Positions 30,435 to 63,376 of a stretch of DNA of 64,000 nucleotides are shown piece after piece. The stretch covers positions 19,034,001-19,098,000 of the forward strand of contig CM059427.1 in NCBI GenBank assembly GCA_030390025.1, read 5' to 3'. The notes under the pieces were generated by a model. That model was not told the origin of the DNA. It saw only the letters and a list, made by a program, of their open reading frames with translations, and made no database searches. The first letter of the stretch is position 1. Each line of letters begins with the position of its first letter. A program made the translations under genes and the position numbers. This DNA comes from Squalus acanthias (Eukaryota).

Positions 30435-30473
30435 TTACCTGACGAAGGAGCGAACTGCTTCGAAAGCTTGTAA
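30435..30473 (+). ncRNA. Minimal type I hammerhead ribozyme motif
   Basis: UUAC CUGACGA A GGAGC gaacu GCUUC GAAA GC UU GUAA: stem I UUAC/GUAA, stem II GGAGC/GCUUC, palindromic stem III AAGCUU, predicted cut after CUU (30469). Confidence 0.78.
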
Positions 30474-30959
30474 AATTAAATAAATCTGTTGGACTATAAC
30501 CTGGTGTTGTGCGACTTCTCATTTTTGTCCACCCCAGTCCAACGCCGGCATCTCCACATCAAGAGCATTCTTGACAGATGGGAAATGCCGGTTTACAGCG
30601 CATGCGCTGTGCATGCCTGAAACCGGCATTTCTAATGTCCCTACGGGTGGGTACACAGCGCGTAGCCACCCGTAGGGATCGGAATATCTGGGCCATTGTT
30701 TGAGGTAGTTATTTGAATTAGATATATATACCAATTTTATGTTTTTAAGAAGTAAGCCATCTCCATTTTCTATAACTCCTAGCTTCCAATCCACACAGCT
30801 TCTTGTAACCATTCTTGTGGGAAAGATTAAATTTCTCCATGGCTTCCAGTCGCGATGCTGCACGAACTATCTGTGCTCATTTATGTCATGGGCAAATGGA
30901 TGTTTCTGCAGTGTTGCTGGACACACGGTTTCCCCCACGTTTGCATGCTTCACCAATGT

Positions 30960-31137
30960 CCACTTGAACTGGCAGATGGGACTTCAGTTTAATGTCTCAC
31001 CCGAAAGAAGGCACCTCCCTCACTCGGTATTGCAGTGAAGTGGCAGAAGAGATTCTGTGCTCAAGTCTCTGGAGTGGGGCTTGAACCCACAACCTTCTAA
31101 GTGAGAGGCGAGAGTACAATAATTGAGCCAAGGCTAC
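30960..31137 (-). mobile_element. tRNA-derived Deu-domain SINE, 5' part
   Basis: Minus strand shows A-box-like tggctcaatt, B-box ggttcaagccc, then ggtgccttctttcgggtgagacattaaactgaagtccc, which resembles the Deu core. Confidence 0.7.
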
Positions 31138-31179
31138 AACGTATTGCATCACTGTTTATAAACCCTTCAAATGTATTTG

Positions 31180-32345
31180 TTAGAATCTAGGAACAGGAGT
31201 AGGCCATTCAGCCCCTTGAGCCTGTTCTGCCATTCAATGAGATCATAGCTGTTCTATCTTCACTCCATCCACCTGCCTTGGCTCCATATCCTTTTATACC
31301 CTTTATTGAGCAAAAGTCTAACGATCTCAGATGTAAAATTAATTTCACACTTCGACCACCATTTGCATGTAGAAGTGTTTCCTAACTTCTCTCCTGAATG
31401 GCCCGGGATTATGTCCTTTTTACCTAGACTCCCCCACCAGCGGAAAAAGTTTATCTCGATCTACCCTATTAATTGGTTTCAAAATGCTAAAAGCCTCAAT
31501 CAAATCACCCATTAACCTTCTATATTCCAGGGAATACAAGCCTAATTTATGTAATTTCTCCTCATAATCTAACCCTTGGAGCCCTGGTAACATTCTGGTG
31601 AATCTGCGCTGCACTCCTTCCAAGGCTAATATATCCTTTCTACGGTGCAGTGCTCAGAACTGTACACAGTACTCCAGATGTGGTCTAACCAGGGCTTTGA
31701 ATAGCTGCAGCAAAACTTCCTCCCTTTTATATTCGAGCCCTCTAGTTATAAAGGCTAAGTTTCAATTAGCCTTTTTGATTATTTTTTGTACCTGACGACA
31801 ACCACATTTCAGTGATCTGTGTCTATGGACACTAAATCTCTTTGGACCTCCACTGTTCCTGGCTTTTTAGCATTTGAATAATAATTGTCTGTATCATTTT
31901 TTTGGTCTAGAATGGATGACCTCACATTTACCTGCATTGAAATCCATCTGCCACAGTTTCACCCACTCACTTAATCTTTCAATGTCTCTAGTAATTTATG
32001 CTCCCGTCTACACTACTTACTATTCCACCAATCTTTGTATCATTGGCAAACTTGGATATATGGCTCTCTCTTGTGTTATTTAAGTCAGTGATAAATGTGG
32101 TGAATAGTTGAGGCCCCAGCAAAGATCCTTGTGGGACACCACAAGTTACTTCCTTCCAATTCGAGTACATACCCATCATCCCTACTCTGTCTTCGACTGC
32201 CGAACCAATCTCTTAATTAGGTCAATAATTGGCCTTCAATTCCATGAGCTTTAATTTTAGCTAACAGTCTCTTATGTGGAACTTACGGACTTCCAGAATG
32301 CATTCGATATGAACTGCATCCATAGACCTTGCCCTGTCTACTACT
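31180..32345 (-). mobile_element. CR1 RT and 3' UTR, degenerate
   Basis: GVPQGSLLGP, SKFANDTKIGG, EGVQRRFTRMLPG. Confidence 0.9.
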
Positions 32346-33239
32346 TTAGAAACAGCCTTCCTCTTTGTTCAAATTGAATTGCAAATATTTGCCGTAAAAA
32401 TTAATAGGATTAATTGCTCGAGTTACTGAGTAGATTGCTATGCTGTAAAGTTATCTTTGGGTGCAATCTCCTAACATCCAGCTGGTTGCAGAGCATAAAA
32501 TGGATTAAAGAAGGTTTATGTTGGAAGGGCAATTGGGATTCCGTGCAATGAATAGTTTCAAGACTTTTGAGTTTACAGTGCTTAGCGGAAAAGGTCACTT
32601 TTGAAGTTAATAAATATGTACAATTTTTCTTCCAGAAAGCCTAATCTGCATACTTGCAATTGTTGCTTAAAGGGTTATTCTTGGAATCAGGTCCAATGTT
32701 GTACTTTTACCATGTATATTTACGGAAGAAAATGCCTTTTATTTTCCTTGGGTGGGGTTACACTGCAGGCTCAAATGTGACACAGACTTCGATCTTGTTT
32801 AAGAAAGTAGACTTGTGGTGGGTCAGTTCCTCAAGAAAATGCTGTCTTTTTTTTTAAATGTGTTTTTTTAATATTTCCTAGCTCATTTTTACTGCAGCTA
32901 ATTAGCAATCAAACTGTAATGCAATATATTTTGTTTTCCCTTGGGTGGACAATCTTTTAGCTTGGGATTTCATGTCTATGTCTGGAATATGACGAACAGA
33001 ATACCTACTGCTGCATATATGCAAATTATTTTGCAGGGTTACCATTACAACTTGTTTTCCTGGGAATCCTGCTTAATATCTATGATAAATAGTTCATACT
33101 GGAATCTGGAAATACAAGGTTACACAGATTTATTCTTGTTGGCTTCTGAAATTAATCTTGATGCACACAATAGAAACAGGACTGATGGGTTTTTTCACAA
33201 ATTTCATCAAGACTTGGTGGATAAGGATAAAAGTAGAGT

Positions 33240-33620
33240 GTTCTAGGAATAGCTTTACATGCAGCAATGTTTATTTTAACACGCTGCCAAATAACAGACT
33301 TATTCGGAAAATAGAAACACATGGTATTACAGGGACGGTGGTAACTTGGGTATTTAATTGACTAAGAGATAGGAGGCAGAAAGTAGTTGTTTTTCTGGCT
33401 GGAGAGAGGTATGCAGTGGGGCCCCCCAGTGGTCGGTATTAGGAGCATTGCTTTTCTTGTTATATATAAATAACCTGGCCTTGGGTATCGGGAGTACAAT
33501 TTCGAAGTTTGCGGATGACAGAAAACTTGGCAATGTACTCAGTAGTGAGCAAGATAGTAGCAGACTTCAGAGGACGCAGACAGATTAGTGAAATGGGCAG
33601 CCACATGGCAGAGGCAATTG
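33240..33620 (+). mobile_element. CR1 RT remnant
   Basis: RLIRKIETHGITG; tcgaagtttgcggatgacagaaaact (SKFADD). Confidence 0.75.
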
Positions 33621-33621
33621 A

Positions 33622-34590
33622 AGGACATCGCTGCAGGAGTTCCTCAGGGCTGTGTCCAAAGTCCAACCACCTTCAGATGCTTCATCAATGACCTTCCTGC
33701 CATCATAAGGGCAGAAGTGGGGATGTTCACAGATGATTGCACAGTGTTCAGTTCAATTTGCAACTCCTTAGATAATGAAGCAGCCCATGCCCGAATGCAG
33801 CAAGACCTGGACGACATTCAGGCTTGGGCTGATAAGTGGCAAGTAACATTTGCACCTCACAAGTGCCAGGCAATGACTATCTCCAACAAGAGATAGTCTA
33901 ACCACCTCCCCATGACATTCAATGGCATTGCCATCGCCGAATCCCCCACCATCAACATCCTGGGGGTCACCATTGACCAGAAACTTAACTGGACCAGCCA
34001 CATAAATACTGTGGCTACAAGAGCAGGTCAGAGGCTGGGTATTCTGCAGCAGGTGACTCACCTCCTGACTCCCCAAAGCCTTTCCATCTACAAGGCACAA
34101 GTCAGAAGTGTAATGGAATACACTCCACTTGCCTGGATGAGTGCAGCTCCAGCAGCACTCGAAACTCAACACCATCCAGGACAAAGCAGCCCACTTGATT
34201 GGCACCCCACCAAGCACCTTAAACATTCACTCCCTCCACCACCTGTGCACTGTGGCTGCAGTGTGTACCATCTACAAGATGCGCTGCAGCAACTCGCCAA
34301 GGCTTCTTCGACTGCACCTCCCAAGCCCACGACCTCTACCACCTAGAAAGACAAGGGCAGCAGGCGCATGGGACCACCACCACCTCCAAGTTCCCCTCCA
34401 AGTCACACACCATCCTGACTTGGAAATCTGTTGCCGTTCCTTCATTGTCATTGGATCAAAATCCTGGAACGCCCTACCTAACAGCACTGTGGGAGTACCT
34501 TCACCACACGGGCTGCAGCGGTTCAAGAAGGCGGCTCACCACCACCTTCTCACAGGCAATTAGGGATGGGCAATAAATGCTGGCCTTGCT
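33622..34590 (+). mobile_element. 5'-truncated Zenon-like LINE
   Basis: AGVPQGCVQSP, MFTDDCTVF, QAWADKWQVTF. Collinear with 54150-55100. Confidence 0.92.
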
Positions 34591-35034
34591 GGTATTTTTT
34601 TAGTTTTCATTATTAAATGCGATCCTTTCCCCCTTCATTGACTAACCGTTTGTAATAAAGTCTGTCCTGGCTCTTTAAAAAATGTTTATCTATCAGTGCA
34701 TAAAATAAGCCATCCCCTGGGATGCATGCAGAAAGGTGAAAGGTTACAGTTTACAAACCTTAAGATCTGCTCTCCTGTTAAACTCTCTGTGGAACTATTT
34801 GTCATAGATGTGAATTAACTTGACAATTCAATTACAATTAAAGATTTATTCCTCATTAAACTGGTGGTTGAGACTCAAATAATCAAGGGATGTGAGGATC
34901 GGGCGGGAAAGTGGAATTGAATTTGAAGATCAGCCATGATCTTATTGTATGGCAGAGCAGGCTCGAGGGGCCAATTGGCCTACTCCTGCTCCTATTTCTT
35001 ATGTTCTTATGTCAGTAATCTGTTCGTGACGGCC

Positions 35035-35098
35035 GAATGCACTTCCAGTCCGGGAGCAAAGGTCACTGAATGCACTTCCTGCCCGGGAGCAAAGGTCA
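35035..35098. repeat. 33-bp tandem duplication (2 copies, 2 mismatches)
   Basis: gaatgcacttcc(a/t)g(t/c)ccgggagcaaaggtca repeated. Confidence 0.9.
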
Positions 35099-35237
35099 AC
35101 GAGGTGTCGGGTCAGGAAAAAAATAGCAACTTGTGATTTCTTACCAAATCTCATGATTTTTAAGAGTTTGTCTCCTGATTTATGAAGCGGTGGGGTTGGC
35201 AATATGGGATTTAGCCACGAACACTGGAACAGATATC

Positions 35238-35720
35238 ATCAGATAGAATCATACAGCACAGAAGGAGGGCATTCAGCCCATCGTGCCTGTGCCAGCTCTT
35301 GGTCGAGCTATCCAATTAGTCCCACTCCCTTGCTCTTTCGCCATAACCCTTCATATTTTAACTTTTCAAATATTTATCCAGTTCCCTTTTGAAAGATATT
35401 ATTGAATCTACTTCCACAGCCCTTTCAGGCAGTGCATTCCAGATCATAACTCGCTGTATAAAAAAAATTCTCATCTCACCTCTGGTTCTTTTGCCAATCA
35501 CCTTAAATCTGTCCTCCGGTTGCTGACCCTCTGGCCAATGGAAACAGTTTCTCCTTTACTGTATCAAAACCCTTCAAAACTTTTGAACACCTCTATTAAA
35601 TCTCCTCTGAACCTTCTCTGCTCTAAAGAAAACAACCCCATCTTCTTTAATCTCTCCAGATTACTGAAGTTCCCTGGTACCATTCTAGTAAATCTCCTCT
35701 GCACCCTCTCCAAGGCCTCA
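35238..35720 (-). mobile_element. CR1 3' fragment
   Basis: atagaatcatacagcacagaaggagg...; antisense of the RRFTR / LGLFSLE region. Confidence 0.85.
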
Positions 35721-35739
35721 AGATATTAGAACCTGACCT

Positions 35740-37600
35740 GGGAACTTATCTCTTCCTATCTCAACTCTTTTTTCCCCCCTTGTCCAGTCTCTTCCCACCT
35801 ACATCCGCGACTCTTCCGACGCCCTCTGCCATTTTAACAGTTTCCAGTTTCCCGGCCCCAACCGTCTCCTCTTCACTATGGACGTACAATCCCTCTACAC
35901 CTCCATTCCCCACCAGGATGGCCTGAGGGCGCTCCGCTTCTTCCTTGAACAGAGGCCCAACCAGACCCCATCCACCGCCACCCTCCTCCGCCTGGCTGAA
36001 CTTGTTCTCACATTGAACAATTTCTCCTTTGACTCTACCCATTTCCTCCAAATTAAAGGTGTTGCTATGGGTACCCACATGGGTCCTAGCTATGCCTGCC
36101 TTTTCATGGGATATGTGGAACACTCTTTGTTCCAGTCCTACTCGGGTCCCCTCCCTCACCTCTTTTTCCGGTACATTGATGACTGTATCGGTGCCGTCTC
36201 CTGCTCTCGCCCTGAACTAGAACGTTTCATTCACTATGCTTCCAATTTCCACCCTTCCCTCACCTTCACATGGTCCATCTCCGACTCTTCCCTTCCCTTC
36301 CTCGACTTCTCCATCTCCATCTCTGGGGATAGGTTATTGACTAACATTCACTACAAGCCCACCGACTCCCACAGCTACCTGGACTACACTTCCTCCCACC
36401 CCGCCTCCTGTAAGGACTCTATTCCATTCTCCCAGTTTCTCCAGCTCCGCCGCATCTGCTCTGATGATGCCACCTTCCATACCAGTGCTTCCGACATGTC
36501 TTCCTTTTTCCTCAACCGAGGATTCCCCTCTACCGTGGTCGACACGGCCCTCGACCGTGTCCGTTCTATCTCCCGCACTTCTGCCCTCACCCCTGCCCCT
36601 CCCTCCCGGAACCACGATAGGGTTCCCCTTGTCCTCACCTTTCACCCCACCAGCCTCCACATTCAACGGATCATCCTCCGCCACCTCCAGCGTGATCCCA
36701 CCACCAAACACATCTTCCCCTCACCTCCCCTTTCAGCATTCCGCAGGGACCGCTCCCTCCGCGACACCCTAGTCCACTCCTCTACCACCCCCAGCACCCC
36801 TTCCCCTTCGCCCGGCACCTTCCCGTGCACGCGCAGGAGATGCAACACATGCCCTTACACCTCCCCTCTTCCCACTGTCCAGGGCCCCAAACACCCCTTC
36901 CAGGTGAAACAGCGATTTACTTGTACTTCCTGCAATTTAGTATACTGTATTCGCTGCTCACGATGTGGTCTCCTCTACATTGGCGAGACCAAACGCAGAT
37001 TGGGTGACCGCTTTGCGGAACACCTCCGTTCAGTCCGTAAGGGGGACCCCGAGCTCCCGGTGGCCTGTCACTTTAATTCACCGCTTCACTCCCACTCTGA
37101 CCTCACCGTCCTCGGCCTATTACACTGTTCCACGGAAGCGCAGTGTAAGCTCGAGGAACAGCACCTCATCTTTCGTTTAGGCACGCTACAGCCCTCTGGA
37201 CTCTATCGAGTTCAACAATTTTAGATCATAACCTCAGCTCCAATCACATTTATATTTTATTTTTTCCACCCTTTTATTTGCCCCCCCCCCCCCCACCTTT
37301 TTTTTCCTCCTAGAAGCTGGCAGCTGTCCTTCATTCTGCCAGTGGATTTCACACTTCATTCAGCCTTAATCTGTCACATTAACACCACCTCTAGCCTTGC
37401 ATATCTCTTAATGTCTCTTCATCTCCCACTTTGTTCCTTTATCCCCTCCCCCTTTTCCCAGCTTTACCCTGGCCTTAAATCTATTTGATTTCCGGCTCTT
37501 CCCAGTTCTGACGAAAGGTCATCGACCTGAAACGTTAACTCTTTCTCTCTCCACGGATGTTGTCTGGCCCGCTGAGTTTTTCCAGCGTTTTCTGTTGTTA
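35740..37600 (+). mobile_element. Penelope-like retroelement (family A), 5'-truncated, with 448-aa RT, Cys-rich linker and GIY-YIG ORF (35878..37224) and tail
   Basis: DVQSLYTSIP, KGVAMGTHMGPSYA, RYIDD, FLD, YKPT, CTRRRCNTC, VYCIRCSRCGLLYIGETKR. The Cys-rich linker suggests the Neptune group. Frameshift at the extreme C-terminus relative to the 62826 copy. Confidence 0.96.
37504..37540 (+). ncRNA. Minimal type I hammerhead ribozyme motif
   Basis: AGUU CUGACGA A AGGUC auc GACCU GAAA CG UU AACU: stem I AGUU/AACU, stem II AGGUC/GACCU, palindrome AACGUU, predicted cut after GUU (37536). Confidence 0.75.
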
Positions 37601-37814
37601 TCTGGGATTTCTTGATGTGAAGAGGGGAGTTAAGAGAAAAAGATAAAGTGAAGATATCAAGTCATTAACTCTTCAGACTCCAAAAAGTATTTGCGCAAAG
37701 AACAAAAATAATGTAAGATCTGAATTTTCTGATGTTGTTAACTGGCCATCAACAAAAAAGTCGCGCTCAGGAATTTGTCGCCCACCCAGTACAAATAAAA
37801 ATTAGAGGGAGCAT

Positions 37815-38345
37815 TGGTCAGGAGGTGAGTTACACACTGCAGAATACCCAGCCTCTGAACTGCTCTTGTTGCCACAGTATTTATGTGGCTGGTTCAGTTA
37901 AGTTTCTGGTCAATGGTGACCCCCCCCAGGATGTTGATGGTGGGGGATTCGACGATGGTAATCCCATTGAATGTCACGGGGAGGTGGTTAGACTCTCGCT
38001 TGTTGGAGATGGTCATTGCCTGGCACTTGTGTGGCACGAATGTTACTTGCCACTTATCAGCCCAAGCCTGAATGTCATTCAGGTCTTGCTGCGTGCGGAT
38101 ACGGACTGCTTCATTATCTGAGGAGTTGCGAATGGAACTGAACACTGTGCAAACATCCCCACTTCTGACCTTATGATGGAGGGGAGGTCATTGATGAAGT
38201 AGCTGAAGATGGTTGGGCCCAGGGCACCGCTGCAGGAGTTCCTCAGAGCAATATCCTGAGGCTGAGATGATTGGCCTCCAACAACCACAACCATCTTCCT
38301 TTGTCCGAGGTATGACTCCAGCCAGTGGAGAGTTTTACCCCCGAA
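37815..38345 (-). mobile_element. Internal fragment of Zenon-like LINE
   Basis: TLHWLESYL, QAWADKWQVTF on the minus strand. Confidence 0.9.
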
Positions 38346-39082
38346 TGACTGCATTTGTCTTTATTAGCAAATATTTATGCAAATTTAGTCTTTCAGTTTT
38401 TATTGTGTATAAAAAGAATGTATACTACAGTTTGTGGAAGATCATAACTTTTGTCGTCCAACTTTCTGGAATTGAGAGGTTATGTTTCTAACTGATCGCA
38501 GACACTTAAAATCTGGGGTTCTGCCCAAAGCGAGCCAGCATAAACATGTTCACTTACTTAGTGCCTCCTTTTAGTCTAGTTATTCTATTCGTTGATTAAT
38601 ATGTAATGCTGCAAGTGCTGTTTGAAAATTTTACCTGCTTTGAGTGGTGCAATCGGATAACACAAGAGTTGCACTGTTGCACTCACCACAGTGTGGAGAA
38701 CGCAAACTTCTTGGCACATGCCTAAATACTTAGAGAACTATAACCTGCTGGGAAAACATTTATATTGTTAAAATCAAACTGTCCTGTCATTATTAACAAA
38801 TGTTAAAAATGTGAAGATGACTCAGCAGACCTCTTGAGACTCGATGTAAAGTTTCAAGTTCTAAAATTTCGAGTTCTAAGTGTTCAATGAACACTGGCTA
38901 TAATTAAACTCTGTTCATTTTGAAGCCCAAGAGGTACAAGACTGCTGGGGTTCTGAACCAAAATTTAGATGAGCTAGTTAGACTTAAATTATGTATGATC
39001 TTTTGCATCACTGTGAAGTTGAAACCACTGAAATAAATGTATAGTATAATAGCACTGTAAATGTTATGACTGGAGATAGGAA

Positions 39083-39196
39083 GTGAAGGAAAAGCCTCCA
39101 ATTATTTAATTAATTTACCGTGAAGAAAAAGCCTCCAATTATTTAATTAATTTACCGTGAAGAAAAAGCCTCCAATTATTTAATAAATTTACCATG
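39083..39196. repeat. 37-bp tandem repeat, 3 copies
   Basis: gtgaagaaaaagcctccaattatttaattaatttacc; gcctcc starts at 39094, 39131 and 39168. Confidence 0.95.
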
Positions 39197-41049
39197 TCAG
39201 TAGGATAATTTGTATCACTAAGAACCTGGGTGAATGGTTAACCTGTGCAATAACACATTGGTGTAGAAAAGTTTATGTTTAGGGGAACGCTGCCGGGTAA
39301 AGTCATTAACCTTTGTAATTGGAATCGTCTTGGAGAAACTAATCACTTTCTGTTCCAGCATTCGAGAGCAAACAAATTAAGTTGCTGTGAAGTGTGCCAA
39401 TAACTTTTTTTTGTTTCGTGTATAGAGCTAAGTGAGCTTGAATTAAAGCATCTCGGTAGTTTAGATTTTTGACCTTGATTGCTGATGCACAATTCTCCAA
39501 GCTAACATTTTCTTTAGCCTAAAACAATAAATTTTAATCGATTCCACTTGCCGCTTGGATTGATGAGTCCTCCAACAGTCCATGTGGAACTGCCTGCAAT
39601 TTAGCTTATTTTCACATTATCTTGAATTCCTGCAAACCTGATGGGAAATGAAATGCAATCTCTAAAAATGAACTTGTTCCTCACATTCAGAAATTCTCAA
39701 TTAACTGTTAAAATCACAGGACGAAATTGTGAAGCTCTGTTAATTGTAACATTCTTTTCATCCCCCAGACAACTTCTTCCTGAACTGAGACATTTACTGA
39801 TAACTAGCTGTACTTTCCTTCCCTCAAAGTAAACATTTCAATGTTGGTGTAGTAAAGATTAGAAGTATTTAGCAATTGACTGGAGCTGGTCAGTCGCTGG
39901 ATATCTCTTTTTCATTGATGCAGAATGTCGAATTTGTTTCTTTATTGAAATCAGTTACATGGATGCCTGTAAAATACTGGCATCACAATATTGTCAAAAA
40001 ACTAAATGCATTGTTAAACTATCCCATTATGTATCACCAGACTATCCCAGATTGTTGTACAATTTGAAGCTTTGCATGACATCACTACTTTTGTTTATAT
40101 CCTATTCTGACAGTTGTATTAAGAACATGAAGTGTGGAATTGAGAAATGGCCATTTGGCTCTACAAACCTTATCCTTCCCCAAACGACGTACTGTTTAAT
40201 CTCTAGTGGACTCAACCCAACCCAATTTATCTCTCGAGGAAATGTTCTGAAAACTTTTCATCCAAATCTCGCCCACCCCCCACCCACAAGCAAATGAAGC
40301 AAAGCTCCAGATTACCAACCCAATGCTGTATTTTTTTAAAAATTATTTATTCAGCATCCTCCACAGCTAAGGCGTATAGCCCAACTTAATAGGTTCTAGC
40401 AAAACAGTGTGTGTTGTGTATGCATGTGCAAATATTGTTGTGTGAGCACCATTTTTTTTTTTTATTGCCTGTACTGAGAAGCTGGGCCTTCTCCTTGAAC
40501 CTCTACAGTTCTTTGGTGATGAGACTGCTACAGTTGGGGAATTGCAGGATTTTGGCCCAGCAACGAATGGTGACCTGTATCCAAGTCAGGATGGTGTATG
40601 ACTTGGTGGAAAACTTGGATATGATGGTGTTTCCATGCACCTGCTGCCCTGGTCCTTCTTGGTGGTAGTGGTATTGTCAAAGTAAACTTGGTGCAACCTT
40701 TAAGGTAATACATACTGAAGACACAGTACACCAGTGGTGGAGGGTCTGGATATTTGAGTTCATTGTCGGAGGTACTGGTCAAATGGGCTCCTCTGTCTTG
40801 GACAGTATCGAGCTTCTTGAGTGTTGTGACTTAAACCCATCCAGGCATGCAATATACAGCACCAGTAACATAATCTCTGCATATCTCATTGTTGAATTCC
40901 CTCTTGCAGTGCGTTGTCCTGTCCTTGTGCATTCACCCCTCATGCCATCACTTCATTTGTTTCACCTGAAGTGATAGAAATTACAGTACAAAAGGTCGTT
41001 TGGCCCATTGCACCTGTGCCAATGCAAGCTCTTGAACTGAAGCTGTCGA

Positions 41050-41700
41050 CTCAGTTCAATGTAGAAAAATATGAAGTAATACAGTTTGGCAGTAAAAGCT
41101 GGGAAACATCTCGATGCTACTGTTTCTAATGGAGTATGTCGGCTGAGGGGTCATGATGTACAGTTACACAGGTCATTAAAGGTGGCAGCGCAATAGGTAA
41201 GGCCAAAAAGTAATGGAATTCTTGGTTTTGCATGTAAAGGCGTAGTATTTTAAGAAAGCAAGCATGCAATGTTGAACTTGTAGAAGATCTTGATTAGGCT
41301 GCAGTTAAAGTGCTGTGTACATTTATAGGAAGCATTTCAAAGCAATGAAGAAGATTCACTAGGCTGTTTCCAGGAATGAGGGATTGATGCTATGACGAGC
41401 AACTTGAGATATTAGGGCTTTTTTCACTGGAGCTGGAAGGGTTAAAGTGCAACTTGATTGCACTGGCTTCAAGATTATGAAGGGTTATAATGAGGTAAAT
41501 AGTGATAGATTGTTTCTACTGTTCAGTGAAACGGTAATGAGGAGGCATAAATATTAGATAATCACCAAAATCAAGGAGAGGTCAGAATTTCTTTTTTGCG
41601 TTGTTAGAATGTGGAATTGAACTGGGTTTGTGGAGGGTAACACCAGTGCAGACTTGATGGGCTGAATGACTTGTTTCTGTGCTGTATGATTCCACTGTAA
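41050..41700 (+). mobile_element. Old CR1 3' remnant
   Basis: QFNVEKYEVIQFG; tail gggctgaatgacttgtttctgtgctgtatgattc. Confidence 0.75.
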
Positions 41701-41899
41701 TCTTCAGCCCTCCAATTCAACTGAACAACCAAAACCAGCACCCCAGCTAATAATCTGCCACTTGAACAGTTCTTCGATCCACTCCCTCTCCGTAATCTGA
41801 GCACTGGTTCTTGGGGCACTTTATGCTGTTGCCATGCTGTCGACCGGATAATTTCATCCCACCACAGGGCCTCAGACTTAAACTTTGGGCTTTTTCATA

Positions 41900-42945
41900 A
41901 TGTGTTTAAAACCAGGATTTGTCTCCTGACTCCTGACCCCTGCCATGTGACTGTAACCCAAATTCACTGTGTTCTTTTGCATGCACATTTCAGCTGCTGC
42001 TCCGGTCCTGAGCCTGTTAGTTCTATCACTTCCCCCAGCCATTCTCTTCTGCCTCCTCCCCTTCTTGTCACCCAGATGTGTGCCACCTTTCATTTCTCCC
42101 CTCTCTGGTACTTTTCCCCATTAATCCTTCCCCCTTTCCATCACTGCTTCCTACTTTCCTGCCAGGAATTTGAAAGTACAGTTAGAAGTGACTTGGAGAG
42201 TTTTTCCCAGCAGAGGACACAGAACGAAGTGGGGTTTGAAGGAGGCTTGAATCTCTCCTTCAATAAGCCTACAGCAACCCTCTGCTTCTTTTGACATTCT
42301 CCGAAGGGCCCATCAAGACACGAGGCATCAACCCCAACTGCCCCATCCTTCTTGCACAACGTGTCGACTGGGAGATTAGCTCACCAACCGCCACCTTGTC
42401 CCACTCACTCCACCCATCACTGCCTCTTTGGACTCTGCCAGCATCAGCTACATCCCAATCTTAATATTTATCACCAGCATGTCAGTTCACTGGCAAACAA
42501 GGCCCTTGCTATCCATGACCTTATTGTGGATAGCATTGACATCCTGGGTTTGATTGCATCTTCGCTCATGGGAGGCAACTTCTTGCCCGTTAACGAAACC
42601 TCCCTGGCTGACTTTGTCCTCTCTCTCTATAAATTCATTGACCTCCTATCCTCCCTAATTATATCCTTCCATGTAAACTGTCCTACCCACCTTCACGAGC
42701 ACTCCCCGATCTTGCCACCTCCCTTGGTTTTCATCATTGACCAAGCCATCTCCGATCATTTCTTCGTATTCCTCACCGCGCACATCCCCCTGCCTCCTTC
42801 AAACCCCACTTCGTTCTGTGTCCTCTGCTGGGGAAAAACTCTCCAAGTCACTTCTAACTGTACTTTCAAATTCCGAACTGCCTAGCCTTTGGCCATCCAT
42901 TCACCATAATACGTCTGCAACCATCAATTAGCTCAACCACTCCCT
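41900..42945 (+). mobile_element. Old L2 endonuclease-region remnant containing an 82-bp inverted duplication
   Basis: SLANKALAIHDLIVDSIDILGL, PTH and ISDHFFV in ORF 42352..42885. Confidence 0.7.
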
Positions 42946-43514
42946 AGCGTCAATGGTTAGGCCACAGTTAAGAGCACTGTGTAGTTGTGGGAACCTCAAA
43001 GAACATTGAAGCCTTGCATAGTGTACAGTACAGCATAGATTCACCAGGATGATACTAGGGATAAGAAACCATTGGTCCAAAGAGAAACTTGTTATGCTGG
43101 ATCTATTTCCACTGGAGCAGAGAATGCCAAGAGGATATTTAAGAGGTTTTTAAAATTGTGTTTTGTTAGAGTGAATAGGGAAAGATTATTTCCTCTGGCT
43201 CGGGAGTTAGGTGTTCATCAATTTAAAATTGTTAACATTTTTTTACACAGTCTTTCAAGCTTGGAATGCTTTTCCAAAAGGGAATATTTGAGGCAGAAAC
43301 TATTGCATCTTTTAAAGGAAAAGTTGATTAGAAATTGGTAGCAGTGCCAGACACTGAGCAGGGAGGGTGGGAGTAGTTTTGGATTGCTTCAGCAAAAACG
43401 CGGCATAGACGCAATTAGCCAAATGACCTCCTTTTGTGTAGTAAACCTCCATCATTTCCTGCCCATTTCTTTTGACCTCAGGATCTGCATGACCGCAATT
43501 AGCCTCCAGTTGAA

Positions 43515-43630
43515 CAAAAAACAAAATATTACAGGTGCTGGAAATCTGAAACAAAATACTGGAAACGCTCAGCAGGTCAGGTAGCATCTGAGGAGAGAGA
43601 ACAATTAAAATTTCAAGTATAACCCATCAT
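43515..43630 (-). mobile_element. Decayed solo Penelope family A tail
   Basis: Similar to 61390-61510 (gctggaaatctgaaa...ctcagcaggtcagg). Hammerhead core degenerate. Confidence 0.75.
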
Positions 43631-44084
43631 TGTAATGTAGATTTTTGTTTTTGATTTAGCTTCCAACGGAGCCTGAACAATAAAACCTAGTGGTCTTAAA
43701 GGGTTGCACACTAGCACCGTGGCAGCAGAATAATACATTGTGCTTTCAGGGTTATGCAGTTGAGCTGAATAGTATAGATGCATTTAGGGGTTAGCTAGAT
43801 GGCATATGAGAGAGAAGGGAATAGAGGGTTATGCTGACAGTGTTAGATGAGGAAGAATGGGAGGAGGCTCGAGTGGAGCATAAACGCTGATGGCCTGATC
43901 CTGTGCTGTATATTCTGTGTAACAGTAGCATTAATTTATTTTGGGATCTAGGGATCTTAAGTTATGAAAAGAAATTCTCAGAACTTAAAAGTTTCCCCTT
44001 TTCTATCTTGGGATTCTTTGAGATGCTGCGTTAAAGTTCCTTGCGAATTGGAAAACCTGTATTACTGGACAAGTGCTCATTCTT

Positions 44085-44930
44085 GATGCTTGACAGGGTA
44101 GATGCTGAGAGGCTGTTTCCCCTTGCTGTAGTGTCTGGAACTAGGGGTCATAGTCTCAGCATAAGGGGTCGGCCATTTAGGACTGAGATGAGGAGAAATA
44201 CCTTCACTCAGAGGGTTGTGAATCTTTGGAATTCTCTACCCCAGAGGACTGTGGATGTTCAGTCGATGAGTATTTTGAAGGCTGAGTTCGATAGAATTTT
44301 GGGCACTGAGGGAATCCAGGGATATGGGAATAGGGCGGGAAAGTGGAGTTGATGTATAAGTTCAGCCATGATCTTATTTAATGGCGGAGCAGGCTCGAGG
44401 GACCGTATGGCCTACTCCAGCTCCTATTTCCTGTGTTATCTTAATCCCACCATGGCAAGTTGGGAAAGTAAATTCAGTAAAATCTGATAATTTGAAAGAT
44501 AATATAAAAACCCAACTGATTTACTAATCCCTTTCAGGGAGGGGAACCCGCCACACTGAACTGATCGAGATCTTTAAGATTAAGAAAGTATTTAATAGGG
44601 TAGACGTAGAGAAAATGTTTTCACTGGTGAGGAGTCCAAAACTAGAGGTCCTCAATATAAGATGGCCACTAATAAATCCTATAGGAATTCAGGAGAAACT
44701 TCATTATCCAAAGAGTGGTAAAAAGTGGAATGTGCTACCATATTGAGTAGTTGAGGCAAATAGGGAAGTTAGACAAGCATGTGAGGGAGAAAGGAATAGA
44801 AGGATATGTTGATGGGGTTAGATGAAGAGGGTTGGCAGGAGGCTGGTGTGGAACATAAACGCAGGCATAGACCACTTGGGCCGAATGGCCTGTTTCTGTG
44901 CTGTAGACTATATGTAATTCTCTGTAATAC
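44085..44930 (+). mobile_element. Two tandem CR1 3' fragments (about 44085-44440 and 44575-44930)
   Basis: LDRVDAERLFP, TRGHSL, FTQRVVNLWNSLP; tails ending gaatggcctgtttctgtgctgta. Confidence 0.88.
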
Positions 44931-45457
44931 ATGTGACTACATGGTTGACTCTTAATGTACACGGGGTAAGCAGGGACAGGCAATAAATGTAGACTTGCAA
45001 GCAGTGCACACATTCAAAGAAAAAAAAAAATTTTTTTAAAGGCTGCAGTGGGGAGGCCAGAATCCTTCACATCTTCACCAATGGTACAGCACCACTGGGA
45101 AAAGGTTACCTTGCGTGCTACAGCATTCGATCTAGCGCACTGCCTCCCCGTAGTGAACCCCAGCATTACGTTTATTTAGGACATTCAGTAAAAAAGCTTC
45201 ATAGAATTAATGATTCTGAAGTGAAGCAACAGGTTAACGTGGCCATACTTGGATTTTCACTAAATTGCAGTCCATTGTTTCATCCCATTGAGGTGGCAGC
45301 AGGATGACTTTTCCACCTGGTCAGTGTGGATTGAAATACTTGGGTGGAAAACAACCCAGCCCAACAAAATCATGGACTTTGAGGCTATTTCAGGAAAATA
45401 CAGTCACTTTTCTTGATTCAGTGACCAGTTAGCATATTGATGATGATCCCCACATTT

Positions 45458-46360
45458 TTTTTTAATTTATTCGTTCATGGGATGTGGGCATCGCTGGTAA
45501 GGCCAGCATTTATTGCCCATCCCTAATTGCCCTCGAAGGTGGTGGTGAGCCGCCGCCTTGAACCGCTGCAGTCCGTGTGGTGAAGGTACTCCCACAGTGC
45601 TGTTAGGGAGGGAGTTCCAGGATTTTGACCCAGCGACGATGAAGCAACGGTGATATACTTCCAAGTCAGGATGGTGGGGAACTTGGAGGTGGTGGTGTTC
45701 CCATGCGCTTGCTGCCCTTGTCCTAGGTGGAAGAGGTCGCGGGTTTGGGAGGTGCTGCCGCAGAAGCCTTGGTGAGTTGCTGCAGTGCATCTTGTAGATG
45801 GTACACACTGCAGCCACGGTACGCTGGTGGTGGAGGGAGTGAATGTTTAAGGTGGTGGATGGGGTGCCAATCAAGTGGGCTGCTTTGTCCTGGATGATGT
45901 CGAACTTCTTGAGAGTTGGTGGAACTGCATTCATCCAGGCAAGTGGAGAGTATTCCATCACACACCTCGCTTGTGCCTTGTAGATGGTGGAAAGGCTTTG
46001 GGGAGTCAGGAGGTGAGACACTCGCTGCAGAATACCCAGCCTCTGACCTCTTGTTGCCACAGTATTTATGTGGCTGGTCCAGTTAAGTTTCTTGTCAATG
46101 GTGACCCCCCCCAGGATGTTGATGGTGGGGGATTCGGTGATGGTAATGCAGTTGAATGTCAAGGGCTGGTGGTTAGATTCTCGCTTGTTGGAGGTAGGCA
46201 TTGTGTGGCACGAATGTTACCTGTCATTTATCAGCCCAAGCCTGAACGTCGTCCAGGTTTTGTTGCATGCGGGCCTGGACTGCTTCATTATCTGAGGAGT
46301 TGTGAATGGCACTGAAGACTGTGCAGTCATCAGCGAACATCCCCATTTCTGATCTTATGT
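45458..46360 (-). mobile_element. 5'-truncated Zenon-like LINE with tail
   Basis: ORF 45467..46201, collinear with 54240-55145. T-run at its 3' end. Confidence 0.93.
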
Positions 46361-47057
46361 TGGGTATATATATATATATCCAGGGTCTGGAGCATGTTCC
46401 AACTCACCCAGATAGGGTAACTTAAAAAACTTTACCAAAATATGTTAGGAAGGCACAGTAATATGCATTGAAGCTCCATAGGTTCAATCCTCAGTTATGT
46501 GCAACCCAGAACGCTCTGTAAATCTCACTTAGCGCAATGCAATGCTGCACTGTATACTGTGCATGTAATATGTTTAAATAATATAGACAAACAATTTGAA
46601 TTGCTGTAGCCACACCTACAGAAAACTGTCTTGAATTGCAAAAGGGAAAATAGGTTGGGGAACAGAGGCTTTTTAAAGCAAGGAAGGAGATGAGGCTGTA
46701 ATGTTGAGGAAGGAAAACAGCAGTAAAAATAAAATTGAAACTTTCTCGTTTGGAATTGGGCTACAAATACTGGTTGAAAATGTTGCACAATTTAAGCATT
46801 TTAATATTCATCAAGGCTTGTGAAATATTGAATAGGAAAATGTAAGTAAGAAGATTGTATCTATGCTTAATGATTTATTCCCAGTTCATAAAATCAGTTA
46901 ATTGTTCGATACAACATTACGCATTTTGATTTTGCCTCTACCTGCTGCTTAATTTGTGGGTTTTTTTGTACAATTGCAATTTGAGTGAAAGGTGTGGTCA
47001 GTTCAGATTTTGGGGCTTTTCTTAATGACATTTAATGTCCTTGTTGTATCTCTACAG

Positions 47058-47118
47058 TTTGGACTTTGAAGAATGTGCTCATAAATTATTGAAGATGGAA
47101 TTTCCTGAAAGTCAAACC
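47058..47118 (+). CDS. CWC22: CWC22 coding exon 13 (SLDFEECAHKLLKMEFPESQT)
   Basis: Matches the human peptide as recalled. tacag acceptor, acc|gtgagt donor. 61 nt, phase 2 to 0. Confidence 0.97.
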
Positions 47119-57749: not shown

Positions 57750-57990
57750 GTAAGTGTTGGCCAGCTATTTAGTCATGGTGAGCATCACATCCAAGGCTGC
57801 TTCTGTCCTCACAACATCCACTTGCAGGAAAGATCACTATAGAGTGATATTACGTGGGAACTTCGACTAATTCCGCCCCTCCCCCAAAAGCCCTGCTCAG
57901 GAGAGCTGAGACCAGCTGTACCTAAGTGTGTCCTCGGCTGAGAACAGCTCACTTAGCTACGTATCAGAATTCAAATCTGGGATTTTCCAT
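57750..57990 (-). mobile_element. Possible decayed tRNA-derived SINE
   Basis: ggctgagaacagctcacttagc...gaattcaaatctggga resembles an antisense B-box head. Weak. Confidence 0.35.
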
Positions 57991-58913
57991 TCTCTCTGGC
58001 TTAGAACCCGACAAAATAATACTTCGATCCACAAGGCCATTGGGGGGGAGCAAGACACCTATTTTTAACAAAGCATTACTATTTTGATCTGACAGCTCAC
58101 GGTGATTAGCACCTGGCCCAAATAATAATTGACCATGAATCCTTTGATCTTCTATTCTGTACCACATTGGCATTAATCTTGTGTGTAAATTGACTGCCTT
58201 GCTTGCCTGCATAATTGTTAATATATTTCAGCGTACTGAAGTGCTTTGAGATGTTTTTGAAAGAGGTGATGAGGCACTAAATAAGAAGATATAGCTGACT
58301 TCTGTGTGGAGACTGAGTGTTGTCTATTAAACTATGAATGCTGAAAACGGACAGGAGGTCCATCAGAATCTGAAAGAGAAAATGCTTTGGGCGGGTGGGG
58401 CCTTCAGAGCAGGTACCAGCTAATTTTACAAAGTAAGCAACGTGTTTAATAGTTTGGGAATAAATTTAAAAATGAAAATTGTGAAAAGTGCTGGATATCA
58501 ATCATCTTTTAAACTGAGTTGGCAATTGAACAACAAGGGGTAAGTGAAATGGGGGCAACATAATAACTAATTTGCATAATTATTTTAAGTGTAAAATACA
58601 AAGAATATTTTCACTAAAATTGGAATTCACCTCATTACAAACCACCTGACTTAATGGAGCCATCAGATTATGTGTATCCTCTTCCCATTGCAGGATAGTA
58701 CTTGATTACCACTGGACAGTTCTTCATATAAATATGGCTGAAATCGAACTCGGTAGTGGTAAATTAAGCTCGTGTCTCATCATTCTCTCCACATATAGAC
58801 ATTCCTATACTGTGTTTCACCATTTCCTCAGCTCTTTTCCCCATTTACTTTGCACGACAAAATTATTATTTTTTTTTTTAAAGTGTTGAAACCGATTTCT
58901 TTTCTCTTCGCAG

Positions 58914-58991
58914 AAAGAACTATGCAACATGATTCTGGATTGTTGTGCTCAACAGAGAACATATGAGAAATTTTTCGGCCTCTTGGCTGGG
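58914..58991 (+). CDS. CWC22: CWC22 coding exon 14 ([26 protein letters not shown])
   Basis: Conserved MA3 peptide. cgcag acceptor, ggg|gtgagt donor. 78 nt. Confidence 0.97.
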
Positions 58992-59259
58992 GTGAGTCAT
59001 TCATTGTAAACATCTATTATTGTTTCTGTGATTTGATTAATAGATTTGCTAAGGATTGAAGCTGAAGAGGGATACTGTTAAAATAGGCAAGGATGTGGTC
59101 GGGAGTTCTAATTGCAGTTGTTCTGTAACAGTGTGATATTTCCGCTTTTAAGTACATAATCATTAATGGTCCTTGAATATAATCTTTAGTGTATTGATTT
59201 TGTTGTGTGGCAGATTGCACACTTCACTTCACTCTCTTTGCGTTTCATTATCCTTGCAG

Positions 59260-59412
59260 CGCTTTTGCATGTTGAAAAAGGACTATATGGAGGCTTTCGA
59301 AGGAATCTGCAAGGAGCAGTATGAAACTATACATCGCTTAGAAACAAATAAACTACGCAATGTAGCCAAGATGTTTGCACATCTCTTGTACACCGATTCA
59401 ATTCCATGGAGT
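59260..59412 (+). CDS. CWC22: CWC22 coding exon 15 ([51 protein letters not shown])
   Basis: Conserved [11 protein letters not shown] motif. tgcag acceptor, agt|gtaagt donor. 153 nt. No later exon is recognisable in the window. Confidence 0.98.
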
Positions 59413-60113
59413 GTAAGTCATAGCCAGTGGCAAGACTGCATTTATTTGTGTCTTTTAAAACTTGGTGTTTCTCTGATATTTCTTATGGGTTTTTGTGAAA
59501 TTAATATTGAGACTCAATGAATATTTTAGGTTGATTAAGGCAGAAAAACTTGTACGCCGTATATCACAAAATTTGAACTTTCGGTTAAAAAGAATAGTGG
59601 GGGAAAATGCCTGGTTTTGTTGGTACTTGATGTTGTGGGTTACTCAATTATAATTCTGTTTTTAAAATAAAATACTTCTTATCTGTACAGTCAAGTCATA
59701 CTCAAAGTGGATGTGTGAGCTGCAGTCTTCCTCATATACTAATTTGACTTTGCGGGTATGCTGGAGGAGGTATGCCTTTTTTTTAAGAATAAAGTTGATG
59801 TAGCATCAACTTTTTCTAGCCTTGGGGAAACTGAATTTATGCTTTCGAAGTGTGTTGGAAATGTGGTTGTGCCACACTCCAATCTTTCATTTGTAGTAGT
59901 GAGAGTTGAATGTGCTTAATAAAGCACCAACCTTAATTTTTCTTTGAACTTCGTGGGTAAATTTTTACGAATTAGTGAGCTTTAACAGTTTATATTAAAG
60001 TGTCAACACAGCATTATAAAGCACAATGTGCTCTATCAGCTACTGTGTTGCTCATGTCCTAGTCCTTCAGGCCAAATTATCTATTTGAATAGACTGAACT
60101 ATGTCAGAATAAA

Positions 60114-60810
60114 GGCCCAGAAATTCCGTTGGCAGCCCTCCCGCGGAAAGATCTGCGCCTGTACCGGAGGGCTCCCGGGAGGTGCAGAATTCCGTTGCTG
60201 TGCCTCTTCAAACTGCCGGTGTGCAGGGCACGAGTATCCCAGGGGCGCAGGCAGATCGCAGCGTCCCTGGGATCACGTGGACCATGGGGAGCCAATCAGA
60301 GCAGGGAATCTCCATTCATAGATTTGACAGGAAGACCTGTCAAATCTATGAATAGAGATCAGCCCCAAAACATAAGTAAAACTTCAAATAATTTTTTTTA
60401 AATCACATTTTAAAAATAACTAAATTACATAAATTAACTATTAAACAAATTAAAATTTTTGAAAAAAATAATTAAAGTTTTTAACGGGGCTAAAACTAAA
60501 CTTTCCTTTCTTTAAAGTATTTTAAAATGATAAATCAGTGGGGGAAAAAAAAATTGTAAAATTTTTTTTTTTACATAAACTATTAGCCTGGTAAAAGCAG
60601 GCCTTGCGCCTGCTTTTCTAGGCGCAGCTGTTCCCGACTTACCTGGACTGATAAAACTGAAAAAAACATAAGTTTCTGACGTACGCGCTGCCTATCCGGC
60701 GCAGGCGTTTGTCCAGTCAAGCCCTTTCTCCAGAGAACGGGAGTTCCGGTTTCCAGTGCATGCGTAAAACCGGCACTTCCGTTGGCCCTACGGGTGAGTA
60801 CACAGCTGCT
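60114..60810. mobile_element. MITE copy, same family and orientation as 29154-30694, right TIR missing
   Basis: Begins ggcccagaaattccg. Collinear with 29154-29660 and 30580-30660. Confidence 0.85.
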
Positions 60811-61484
60811 GTTCTTGGATTGAAGTCTGTCCTAAATTTAAAAAAAAAACTTTCTTTTTCTTTCAGAATTAAATGCAGTTGAGTCTCAAATATGGTGAAT
60901 TGTACATTACGTTGAATTACATAGAAATTACAACACAAAAATGGTCTATTCGGCCCAACCAGTTTGTCTTGGTGTTTCCTCATAAGCAGTAATCCTAATC
61001 CATTGTACTCTCCCTGTTCCATATCCCTTATCTTCCTTTTTTCAGACAGCTATCTAACTTATTCTGGAACATTGACATGGTCTCTGCTTCAATCACTAAT
61101 TCCAATAGAGCATTTCACGACCCTCTGTGTAAAACTTTTCCTGTTCTCTGACCTAAATCTCTTGCATTTAATCTTATATCAACGTCCCCTCATTCTAGAC
61201 TCCTCAATATGGAAACAGTCTTTCAATAAACCCTGTCCCATCATTAAACAGTTTTAAACACACCTGTTCTAACTAAAACGGCCCCAGTCTTTGAAGTTGT
61301 TAATTTTTGTATTTCCTCATGCCAGGCCGCATCCTAGTAAATCTACACAGTACCCTCTTGATTGCTTCAATATCCTTCCTATAGTACAAAAGCAAAATAC
61401 TGCGGATGCTGGAAATCTGAAATAAAAACAGAAAATGCTGGAAATACTCAGCAGGTCAGGCAGCATCTGTGGAGAGAGCAACAG

Positions 61485-61522
61485 AGTTAACGTTTCAGGT
61501 CAATGAGCCTTCGTCAGAACTG
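61485..61522 (-). ncRNA. Hammerhead motif with disrupted stem II (antisense to CWC22)
   Basis: Minus strand reads AGUU CUGACGA A GGCUC auu GACCU GAAA CG UU AACU. Stem II has a C-C mismatch. Confidence 0.55.
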
Positions 61523-63337
61523 GAAAAAGCTGGAGATCGAACAGGTTTTTAAGCAAGTGCAGGGACAGGGGAGGAAAGAACAAAAGGGGAAGGTCTGTGA
61601 TAGGATGGAAGGCAGGAGAGATTAAGAGATGGTGCAAGGCAGAAGGAGATGGTAATGGGACAAGTTAAGAAACAAAAGATGGCTCTAGATGAAGTGTAAA
61701 TGGCACTGGCAGAAGGAGAGACAGCTGCCATGTGGGAGAGAGAGGGAAAAAAATATATAATAAATAAAATAAATGGAAAAAAAAGACAGGGGCAGAGGTT
61801 ATGGTCTGAAATTATTGAACTCTATGAGTCCAGAAGGCTGTAAAGTGCCTAATCGAAAGATGAGGTGCTGTTCCTCGAGCTTACGTTGAGCTTTATTGGA
61901 ACAGTGCAAGAGGCTGAGGACAGTGAGGTCTGAGTGAAGCGGAGAATTAAAGTGACAGGCGTCCGGAAGCTCGGGGTCACCCTTACGGACTGAACGGAGG
62001 TGTTCCGCAAAGCGGTCACCCAATCTGCGTTTGGTCTTCCCAATGTCGAGGAGACCGCATAGTGAGCAGCGAATACAGTATATTAAATTGCAAGAAGTGC
62101 AAGTAAATCGCTGTTTCACCTGGAAGGAGTGTTTGGGTCCCTGGACAGTGGGAAAGGTGGAGGTAAAAGGGCATGTGTTGCACCTCCTGCGCTTGCATGG
62201 AAAGGTGCCGGGCGAAGGGGTGTTGGGGGTGATAGAGGAGTGGACCAGGGTGTCGCGGAGGGAGCGGTCCTTTCGGAATGCTGAAAGGAGAGGTGAGGGG
62301 AAGATGTGTTTGGTGGTGGGATCACGCTGGAGGTGGCGGAAATGGCGGAGGATGATCCGTTGAATGTGGAGGCTAGTGGGGTGAAAGATGAGGACAAGGG
62401 GAACCCTATCGTGGTTCCGGAAGGGGTAGGGGTGAGAGCAGAAGTGCGGGAAATAGAACGGACACGGTCAAGGGCCGTGTCAGCCACGGTAGAGGGGAAT
62501 CCTCGGTTGAGGGAAAAGGAAGACATGTCGGAAGCACTGGTATGGAAGGTGGCATCGTCAGAGCAGATGCGGTGGAGACCGAGAAACTGGGAGAATGGAA
62601 TAGAGTCCTTACAGGAGGCGGGGTGGGAGGAAGTGTAGTCCAGGTGGCTGTGGGAGTCAGTGGGCTTGTAGTGAATGATTGTCAATAGCCTACCCCCAGA
62701 GATGGAGACAGAGAAGTCCCACTGTCCAGGTGAAACAGCGATTTACTTGTACTACTTGCAATTTAGTATACTGTATTCACTGCTCATGATGCGCTCTCCT
62801 CTACATTGGGGAGACCAGACGCAGATTGGGTGACCGCTTTGCGGAACACCTCCGTTCAGTCCGTAAGGGTGACCCCGAGCTTCCGGTCTCCTGTCAATTT
62901 AATTCTCCGCTCCACTCCCACTCTGACCTCTCCGTCCTCGGCCTCTTGCACTGTTCCAATGAAGCTCGGCGTAAGCTCGAGGAACAGCACCTCATCTTTC
63001 AATTCGGCACTTTACAGCCTTCTGGACTCAACATTGAGTTCAACAATTTCAGATCATAACCTCTGCCCCATCTCTTTTCCATTTATTTTATTTATTATAT
63101 ATTTTTTTCTCTCCCACATGGCAGCTGTCTCTCCTTCTGCCAGTGCCATTTACACTTCATCTAGAGCCATCTTTTGTTTCTTAACTTGTCCCATTACCAT
63201 CTCCTTTTGCCTTGCACCATCTCTTAATCTCTCCTGCCTTCCATCCTATCACAGACCTTCCCTTTTGTTCTTTCCTCCCCTCCCACCTTCCCTGTCCCTA
63301 CACTTGCTTAAAAACCTGTTCGATCTCCAGCTTTTTC

Positions 63338-63376
63338 CAGTTCTGACGAAGGGTCGTCGACCTGAAACGTTAACTG
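63338..63376 (+). ncRNA. Minimal type I hammerhead ribozyme motif
   Basis: CAGUU CUGACGA A GGGUC guc GACCU GAAA CG UU AACUG: 5-bp stem I, stem II with a basal G-U pair, palindrome AACGUU, predicted cut after GUU (63371). Confidence 0.78.

Follow-up and report, generated by a model that had tools for sequence, protein, structure and literature searches.

Hammerhead motifs of Penelope-like elements in the introns of a shark CWC22 gene are probably inert passengers

Three hammerhead ribozyme motifs lie in the sense orientation within introns of CWC22, the gene of an essential splicing factor, in a stretch of 64,000 nucleotides of Squalus acanthias DNA (GenBank assembly GCA_030390025.1, contig CM059427.1, positions 19,034,001 to 19,098,000), hereafter called the window. 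Do such motifs cut the transcript of the gene that houses them? An earlier note on this DNA had proposed that two of the three dimerise and cleave the nascent RNA. If dimer cutting were true, ribozymes would control an essential splicing factor and, beyond it, thousands of other genes. We report here that the three sense motifs lie in the 3' repeats of three Penelope-like element (PLE) insertions in CWC22 introns. As judged from folding models, copy number and orientation within genes, these PLE hammerheads are likely inert passengers in the CWC22 pre-mRNA, and as a locus the CWC22 motifs are ordinary.

Three motifs at the ends of three insertions

CWC22, the host, runs on the plus strand, and its best protein matches are those of sharks. 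Its exons were placed by tblastn and splice sites and are numbered here as coding exons within the window, the gene ending approximately 8 kb beyond it. Intron 12 (28031-47057), which separates exon 12 (27946-28030) from exon 13 (47058-47118), houses two of the motifs, at 30435-30473 and 37504-37540, with predicted cuts at 30469/30470 and 37536/37537. The third, at 63338-63376 (predicted cut 63371/63372), is housed in intron 15 (59413-64063), downstream of exon 14 (58914-58991) and of exon 15 (59260-59412), which carries the MA3 domain. The 37504 motif stands 9,521 nt ahead of exon 13, and 25,835 nt separate it from the 63338 motif. All these exons and motifs are on the plus strand.

Each motif reads, in order, stem I, CUGACGA, one bulged A, a 5-bp stem II, GAAA, two bases, UU and the second strand of stem I. 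This is the arrangement of a minimal type I hammerhead: the core (CUGANGA ... GAAA ... UH) is present, helix I has 4-5 bp (4, 4 and 5 bp in the 30435, 37504 and 63338 motifs, respectively), and one unpaired base stands ahead of helix II, in which the 30435 and 63338 copies have G-U wobbles. Positions 15.2/16.2 are palindromic, without loop 3, and read AAGCUU in the 30435 motif (family A) and AACGUU in the two others (family B). Positions, stems, palindromes and predicted cut sites of the three sense motifs all match the earlier note, which was also correct that AAGCUU is incompatible with AACGUU, G-G and C-C clashes arising on pairing. It had held that the families share only the catalytic core; U17, the bulged A and two invariant pairs of stem II are common to both as well, and their endonucleases are 39% identical over 94 aa. 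Further forms of the motif exist: one family A subfamily reads AAGCUC, with a C at position 17 that changes the cleavage triplet, and the variants of N7 number at least four, those of loop II several.

Two antisense motifs on the minus strand were likewise found where the note had placed them, at 29731-29769 and 61485-61521. They are not independent copies, being the opposite arms of the same insertions as the 30435 and 63338 motifs, and the claim that every stem pairs fails in the second of them, which has a C-C mismatch in stem II. To these five motifs must be added two decayed copies that had been overlooked: a truncated 3' end of family B, its core broken, at 6898-7004 (plus strand), and a decayed family B 3' end in antisense, within intron 12, at 43517-43618 (minus strand). 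The remaining 8 kb of CWC22 past the window contain no extra motif, and thus no sense partner for the AAGCUU copy.

A loose core pattern matched 8 times in the window versus 2.7 +/- 1.9 times in shuffles. Over 1,984,000 bases searched, a descriptor requiring core plus stems retained 60 hits out of 104 core matches, whereas five shuffles gave 14 to 26 core matches each and none with stems. The motifs are thus not due to chance. The earlier note had looked to Rfam for confirmation, which did not come: the scan returned six matches at E up to 10, none of them to a hammerhead model. We infer that the absence of stem III is the cause.

The insertions themselves were delimited as follows. The 30435 motif belongs to an inverted family A insertion at 29686-30558, made of a minus-strand endonuclease end and 3' repeat followed by an inverted short copy. 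Its arms (29683-29882 and 30322-30521) match as complements in 199 of 200 bases and are followed by a tail of about 37 bp on one side (30522-30558), and a 16-bp target-site duplication flanks the whole (29670-29685 and 30559-30574). Ten nucleotides 3' of the predicted cut, within the duplexed arm, AATAAA on the plus strand (30479-30484) is a candidate poly(A) signal; 33 of 35 listed tails of family A have it, and it is possibly the signal of the element. In the window, family A shows its endonuclease end alone, and the linker between reverse transcriptase (RT) and endonuclease (EN) is absent there.

The 37504 motif ends a 5'-truncated family B element on the plus strand (35741-37611), which is 89-97% identical to 11 other genomic copies. 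Its 495-aa frame (35737-37221) contains an RT, a C-X4-C-X2-C linker (CTRRRCNTC) and a GIY-YIG domain, the matches to RVT_1 (E 3e-6) and GIY-YIG (E 5e-4) being weak and both under the Pfam cut-offs. A CX2-5CxxC linker between RT and EN marks Neptune and also Nematis PLEs (PMC8557442, cited here, as elsewhere, for part of its text), and the family B linker points to the Neptune (or Nematis) type over Poseidon. No inverted partner was found within 5 kb of this element, nor any flanking duplication of at least 8 bp, and its motif is the sole sense copy of the three without an adjacent complementary arm.

The 63338 motif lies in an inverted family B insertion (61386-63437), in which a minus and a plus copy stand back to back. 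The arms (61419-62124 and 62725-63439) are 90.5% alike over 727 columns, and a 13-bp target-site duplication is found at 61373-61385 and 63438-63450. This copy represents a subfamily related to the 37504 element (77% over 739 columns). Between 63370 and 63400, and in family B tails generally, the site of the predicted cut coincides in part with UUAAC, which is branch-point-like; a pyrimidine tract and CAG/AUG come next, in an arrangement that is 3' splice site-like. In place of this AG, the 37504 copy and one young subfamily carry GG. A non-LTR retrozyme was considered as the source of the motifs and rejected, each motif following endonuclease-coding sequence or an inverted copy, without tandem units.

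Many short family B copies start at, or slightly within, the 5' strand of stem I, and the loose ends of other organisms' contigs aligned to the 37504 element fall at 37502-37505. It is at the 5' edge of the motif, not at the cut site, that 5' truncation or inversion of the strand seems to concentrate. Among the contigs of four other-organism runs on the 37504 element, none spans a junction between element and flank; such contigs cannot show RNA ends, strand or level, and have no bearing on cleavage either way.

Copy number, covariation and orientation of the motifs

Four non-overlapping exact patterns matched 52,065, 4,770, 20,500 and 25,307 times, 102,642 in total, in 3.71 Gb, and the reversed control patterns 2, 1, 0 and 0 times genome-wide. 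The total counts exact matches and is a lower bound, further loop lengths lying outside the patterns; duplicate haplotype contigs could inflate it. Contig C3575 and C1:11.6-13.3 Mb, for instance, are alike in LamG exon spacing, which suggests either a paralogue or a contig of a duplicate haplotype. Motif density is 27.6 per Mb, so that approximately 0.97 sense motifs are expected per 70 kb, and the probability of at least three sense copies in 70 kb is 0.07-0.09. With 102,642 motifs genome-wide, three sense copies in 70 kb are therefore unremarkable; for two sense AACGUU copies in 64 kb, P = 0.075. Elsewhere in the genome, at about 6.99-7.13 Mb of C1, family B motifs of the same strand occur in runs, with about 1.2-3.3 kb from one motif to the next. 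These runs suggest tandem arrays, the setting where dimer cleavage is most plausible.

Covariation was scored on 85 copies, chosen by core and tail (with a loose tail filter) and not by stems, in a register anchored on the core. When 61 of the 85 were aligned with MAFFT, the families fell one column out of register past loop II, hence the core-anchored counts were used. Stem I positions were paired in 79, 76, 74 and 69 copies, stem II positions in 83, 82, 77, 82 and 78, and the palindrome positions 15.2/16.2 in 82. The bulged base was A in 83 copies, all four bases were found at N7, and loop II ranged from 1 to 9 nt. Where stem I pairs are lost, 5' truncation at the edge of the motif often seems to be the cause. 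Double-sided compensatory changes were found at 8 of the 10 pair positions, and bear out the stem covariation between the two families that had been noticed earlier; being a handful of family-level events and not 85 independent ones, they are given no P value. At pair 10.1-11.1, paired in 83 of 85 copies, G-C was found in 37 (family A), A-U in 32 and G-U in 14 (family B). In published minimal hammerheads, G10.1-C11.1 is strongly but not absolutely conserved (PMC4209133, a paper cited throughout for part of its text).

Genome-wide, the core CpG was intact (C7G8) in 24,115 motifs, whereas 9,532 had the tolerated U7G8 form and 2,179 the dead C7A8 form. Deamination of CpG after insertion should yield both decay products equally, yet the tolerated form exceeds the dead one 4.4-fold. 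This asymmetry suggests that U7 source elements spread and A8 ones did not, that is, selection in the retroelement lineage, with few founders. It carries no information on the host.

For the host, sense and antisense copies were compared within 1.8 Mb between the exons of four giant genes, located by exon matches: two LamG-repeat genes on the minus strand, one LamG-repeat gene on the plus strand and one CUB/Sushi gene on the plus strand. The extents of these genes, and their likeness to neurexin, CNTNAP and CSMD, are putative, and contig C3575 was excluded as a possible duplicate haplotype. Exact patterns matched 27 times in sense and 26 times in antisense, for 24.9 expected per strand. With the stem descriptor (53 of its 60 hits), the ratio was 32 sense to 21 antisense (P = 0.17). 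For stretches of one gene that lay outside the 1.8 Mb, an incomplete list holds 8 more positions in sense and 13 in antisense; with these the ratio became 40:34, which corresponds to a sense share with a 95% confidence interval of 0.42-0.66 and rejects a twofold depletion (P = 0.0002). The apparent sense excess (32:21 overall, 14:7 for unpaired copies) was rejected as noise, given 27:26 and 40:34 on the wider counts. Family B copies found by their tails and keeping the motif region had an intact core in 19 of 31 cases in sense and 18 of 39 in antisense (Fisher P = 0.24); the tail search also returned 12 sense and 26 antisense tails without alignable motif, and a few known copies were missed by blast. 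This first sample says that host introns tolerate PLE hammerheads.

Masking by inverted arms, and the rival explanations

The hammerhead folds of the 30435, 37504 and 63338 motifs were computed at -7.0, -6.5 and -9.5 kcal/mol, and for each motif a misfold lies lower by 2.5-3.2 kcal/mol. That monomers should be weak, as the earlier note expected, agrees with the literature, in which a single minimal hammerhead gave no detectable cleavage and dimers were weak (PMC4209133). Duplexes with the upstream arm reach far lower values, -379 kcal/mol for the 30435 motif and -624 kcal/mol for the 63338 motif, and in the fold of 29660-30560 all 39 nt of the 30435 motif are paired to the arm with a probability of 1.0. 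These two motifs are predicted to be buried in duplexes of 200 bp and about 700 bp, respectively, with their own antisense arms. Both hairpins of the CWC22 pre-mRNA (29683-30521 and 61419-63439) are also candidate substrates for A-to-I editing.

The same geometry is found at other copies. Inverted partners, assigned to classes by homology, sit 5' of the motif in the motif's own direction in 33 of 35 cases, a partner of this kind lies within 5 kb of 18 of the 32 intact sense copies, and among 100 family A matches listed, all 26 close pairs are back to back. Owing to this back-to-back geometry the host polymerase reaches the antisense arm first, from either direction, and automatic masking of many sense copies is predicted.

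We propose that the motif is selected while in the RNA of an active element, where a partner repeat would be near and the element protein would aid folding, and that it decays passively after insertion. A lone copy in a host transcript, without stem III, would favour a misfold that pairs the core, and in inverted insertions the antisense arm, transcribed first, would capture the motif in a long duplex. By way of core-pairing misfold and arm capture, the intron would be spliced out uncut in nearly all molecules. If the motif works at all, it presumably does so in the element's own RNA-protein complex.

Several observations weigh against the motifs being inert. When all family B tails are counted, sense copies are fewer than antisense ones (43 vs 65, P = 0.043), and something in the sense family B tail may be mildly harmful, though this is not seen for intact cores. 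The orientation sample is small, consisting of four large genes that are presumably neuronal, not housekeeping, and a depletion to about 42% sense stays compatible with it. Cleavage of an intron can be tolerated, through exon tethering, and young insertions may not have been purged yet, so that lack of bias need not mean lack of cutting. The folding models omit tertiary contacts, proteins and co-transcriptional kinetics, and the 37504 copy has no complementary arm nearby. Finally, retrozymes of Xenopus are under-represented in introns (bioRxiv 10.64898/2026.07.22.740005, a preprint cited for part of its text).

It is conceivable, although unlikely, that unmasked sense copies such as 37504 cut slowly in trans, with the element protein or with AACGUU partner transcripts; splicing would mostly tolerate the cuts, and no orientation bias would build up. 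The 37504 motif has intact core and stems and no inverted arm within 5 kb, an element of Anolis offers a precedent for protein-assisted cutting (PMC11167929), and contigs of two other organisms, from runs guessed to be RNA, contain the 3' end with its motif in abundance. However, the intermolecular stem III between 37504 and 63338 has just 4 bp (-1.7 kcal/mol), and when the two are co-folded the preferred duplex pairs the cores and is inactive. No Anolis reads end at the site (PMC11167929), and intact sense copies show no depletion. The 9,521 nt from 37504 to the next exon resemble the 9,931 nt of the CPEB3 ribozyme (PMC10919898, likewise cited for part of its text), a likeness that is probably coincidence for a young, high-copy insertion.

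With more than 100,000 intact hammerheads, and some half of those in introns lying in sense to the host gene, a latent cutting of introns throughout the transcriptome can be imagined, but we consider it very unlikely; in it, unmasked copies, 37504 among them, would cut when Penelope protein or a trans partner RNA is present. Back-to-back geometry would then silence the other copies, and CWC22 intron 12 would be one switchable site.

Effects of the 3' repeats on CWC22 that require no catalysis, whether by double-stranded RNA hairpins (editing, splicing), by AATAAA or by the acceptor-like tail, appear highly improbable. They would draw on the 200-bp and approximately 700-bp inverted repeats within introns 12 and 15, on the retention of the AATAAA of 30479 in 33 of the 35 printed family A tails, on the UUAAC, pyrimidine tract and CAG after the 63338 motif, and on the excess of antisense tails (43:65). 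Yet the AG and GG forms of the tail are distributed 5:14 in sense and 9:8 in antisense (P = 0.17), and a young and abundant family B subfamily lacks the AG.

That 37504 and 63338, within a single transcript, form a dimer spanning exons 13-15 and cleave the CWC22 RNA as it is made, as the earlier note had it, is scarcely credible: both motifs are intact, their palindromes are compatible over a 4-bp stem III, and minimal hammerheads are known to cut weakly as dimers (PMC4209133), but a 90.5% complementary arm lies about 1.9 kb upstream of 63338 in the same RNA and is predicted to lock that copy in a duplex (-624 vs -9.5 kcal/mol), while 37504 can pair with the 61485 arm instead (-65 kcal/mol locally). 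Timing is also unfavourable, as 25,835 nt represent 6-7 min at mammalian elongation rates (quoted as 3.5-4.1 kb/min, which may not be the shark's), and the acceptor of intron 12 is out after 2-3 min. Sense copies are not depleted in the genes sampled, and such a pair of AACGUU copies (P = 0.075 in 64 kb) is ordinary at 27.6 motifs per Mb.

Other repeats are present in the window. A second repeat was found at 29196-29451 and 60147-60402 (83% over 256 nt); it includes a short perfect hairpin at 60308-60361, has matching ends near 29.6 and 60.5-60.6 kb, and is possibly a non-autonomous DNA transposon. In intron 8, long frames of a LINE-type RT occupy 21447-23225 on the minus strand (RVT_1, E 9e-22), and many more LINE fragments occur throughout the window.

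Comparison with known systems

Searches of the open literature turned up no publication that treats PLE hammerheads of sharks or the way these motifs are oriented within introns. Sharks go unmentioned in the portion of the minimal-hammerhead paper considered here (PMC4209133), and the 2026 preprint sampled one chondrichthyan (bioRxiv 10.64898/2026.07.22.740005); the supplements of either may list shark families. The literature already describes the motif class, the logic of dimer cleavage and the inverted insertions. As the earlier note recognised, the class is not new, minimal type I hammerheads of PLEs having been described by Cervera and De la Pena in 2014 (PMC4209133). The shark motifs resemble them in being of type I without loop 3, with 4-5 bp in helix I, one base left unpaired between positions 9 and 10.1 and a palindromic 15.2/16.2; in lying in the 3' repeat, past an RT/GIY-YIG frame; and in occurring mostly as lone or opposite-strand copies, in several consensus families with covariation (PMC4209133). 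They differ in that the published 10.1-11.1 pair is, in most cases, G-C, whereas that of shark family B is A-U or G-U, and in that helix II has 5 bp in the shark versus 7-8 bp in the Schistosoma families (PMC4209133). In the Penelope of Drosophila virilis, the end of an intron overlaps the hammerhead (PMC4209133).

Biochemical evidence is available for PAc, the Poseidon of Anolis carolinensis, from Frangieh et al. (2024). Its hammerhead cuts solely with the element protein, is dispensable for insertion in vitro, and is not marked by any RNA-seq reads ending at the site (PMC11167929). PAc is likewise a vertebrate PLE, and resembles the shark elements in that its genomic copies end some tens of bases past the hammerhead and have a one-sided tail (PMC11167929). 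Unlike PAc, shark family B has a C-X4-C-X2-C linker, and the shark families are known from sequence alone. More generally, the function of the hammerhead in EN+ PLEs has been called unclear (PMC8557442), and of nine Xenopus retrozyme dimers one cut (bioRxiv 10.64898/2026.07.22.740005). Both inverted insertions in CWC22 fit the published architecture of inverted, 5'-truncated PLEs with a tail of 30-40 bp, and the family A insertion shows the one-sided tail of that type (Craig et al. 2021, PMC8557442). That the antisense arm always precedes the sense motif in the host transcript is absent from the passages on PLEs considered from that paper (PMC8557442).

Like the 37504 motif, the HDV-like ribozyme of CPEB3 is intronic, in sense, and some 9.5-9.9 kb away from the next exon (PMC10919898). 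It works as a monomer, however, with a half-life of 2-3 min, at a single conserved locus (PMC10919898). The shark motifs differ from it as high-copy, young insertions without stem III. Conserved intronic hammerheads of amniotes are also single conserved loci and are active as monomers. A domesticated intronic ribozyme, as one locus or a few under host conservation, does not fit CWC22, there being more than 100,000 copies and the 37504 element being 95-97% identical to dispersed ones.

Where the shark stands apart is in number. Minimal-hammerhead counts were about 9,000 in Xenopus tropicalis and about 4,000 in the coelacanth (PMC4209133), versus at least 102,642 exact matches here, approximately ten times the counts topping the paper that defined the class. 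With copy numbers this high, the function of PLE hammerheads becomes testable by orientation statistics.

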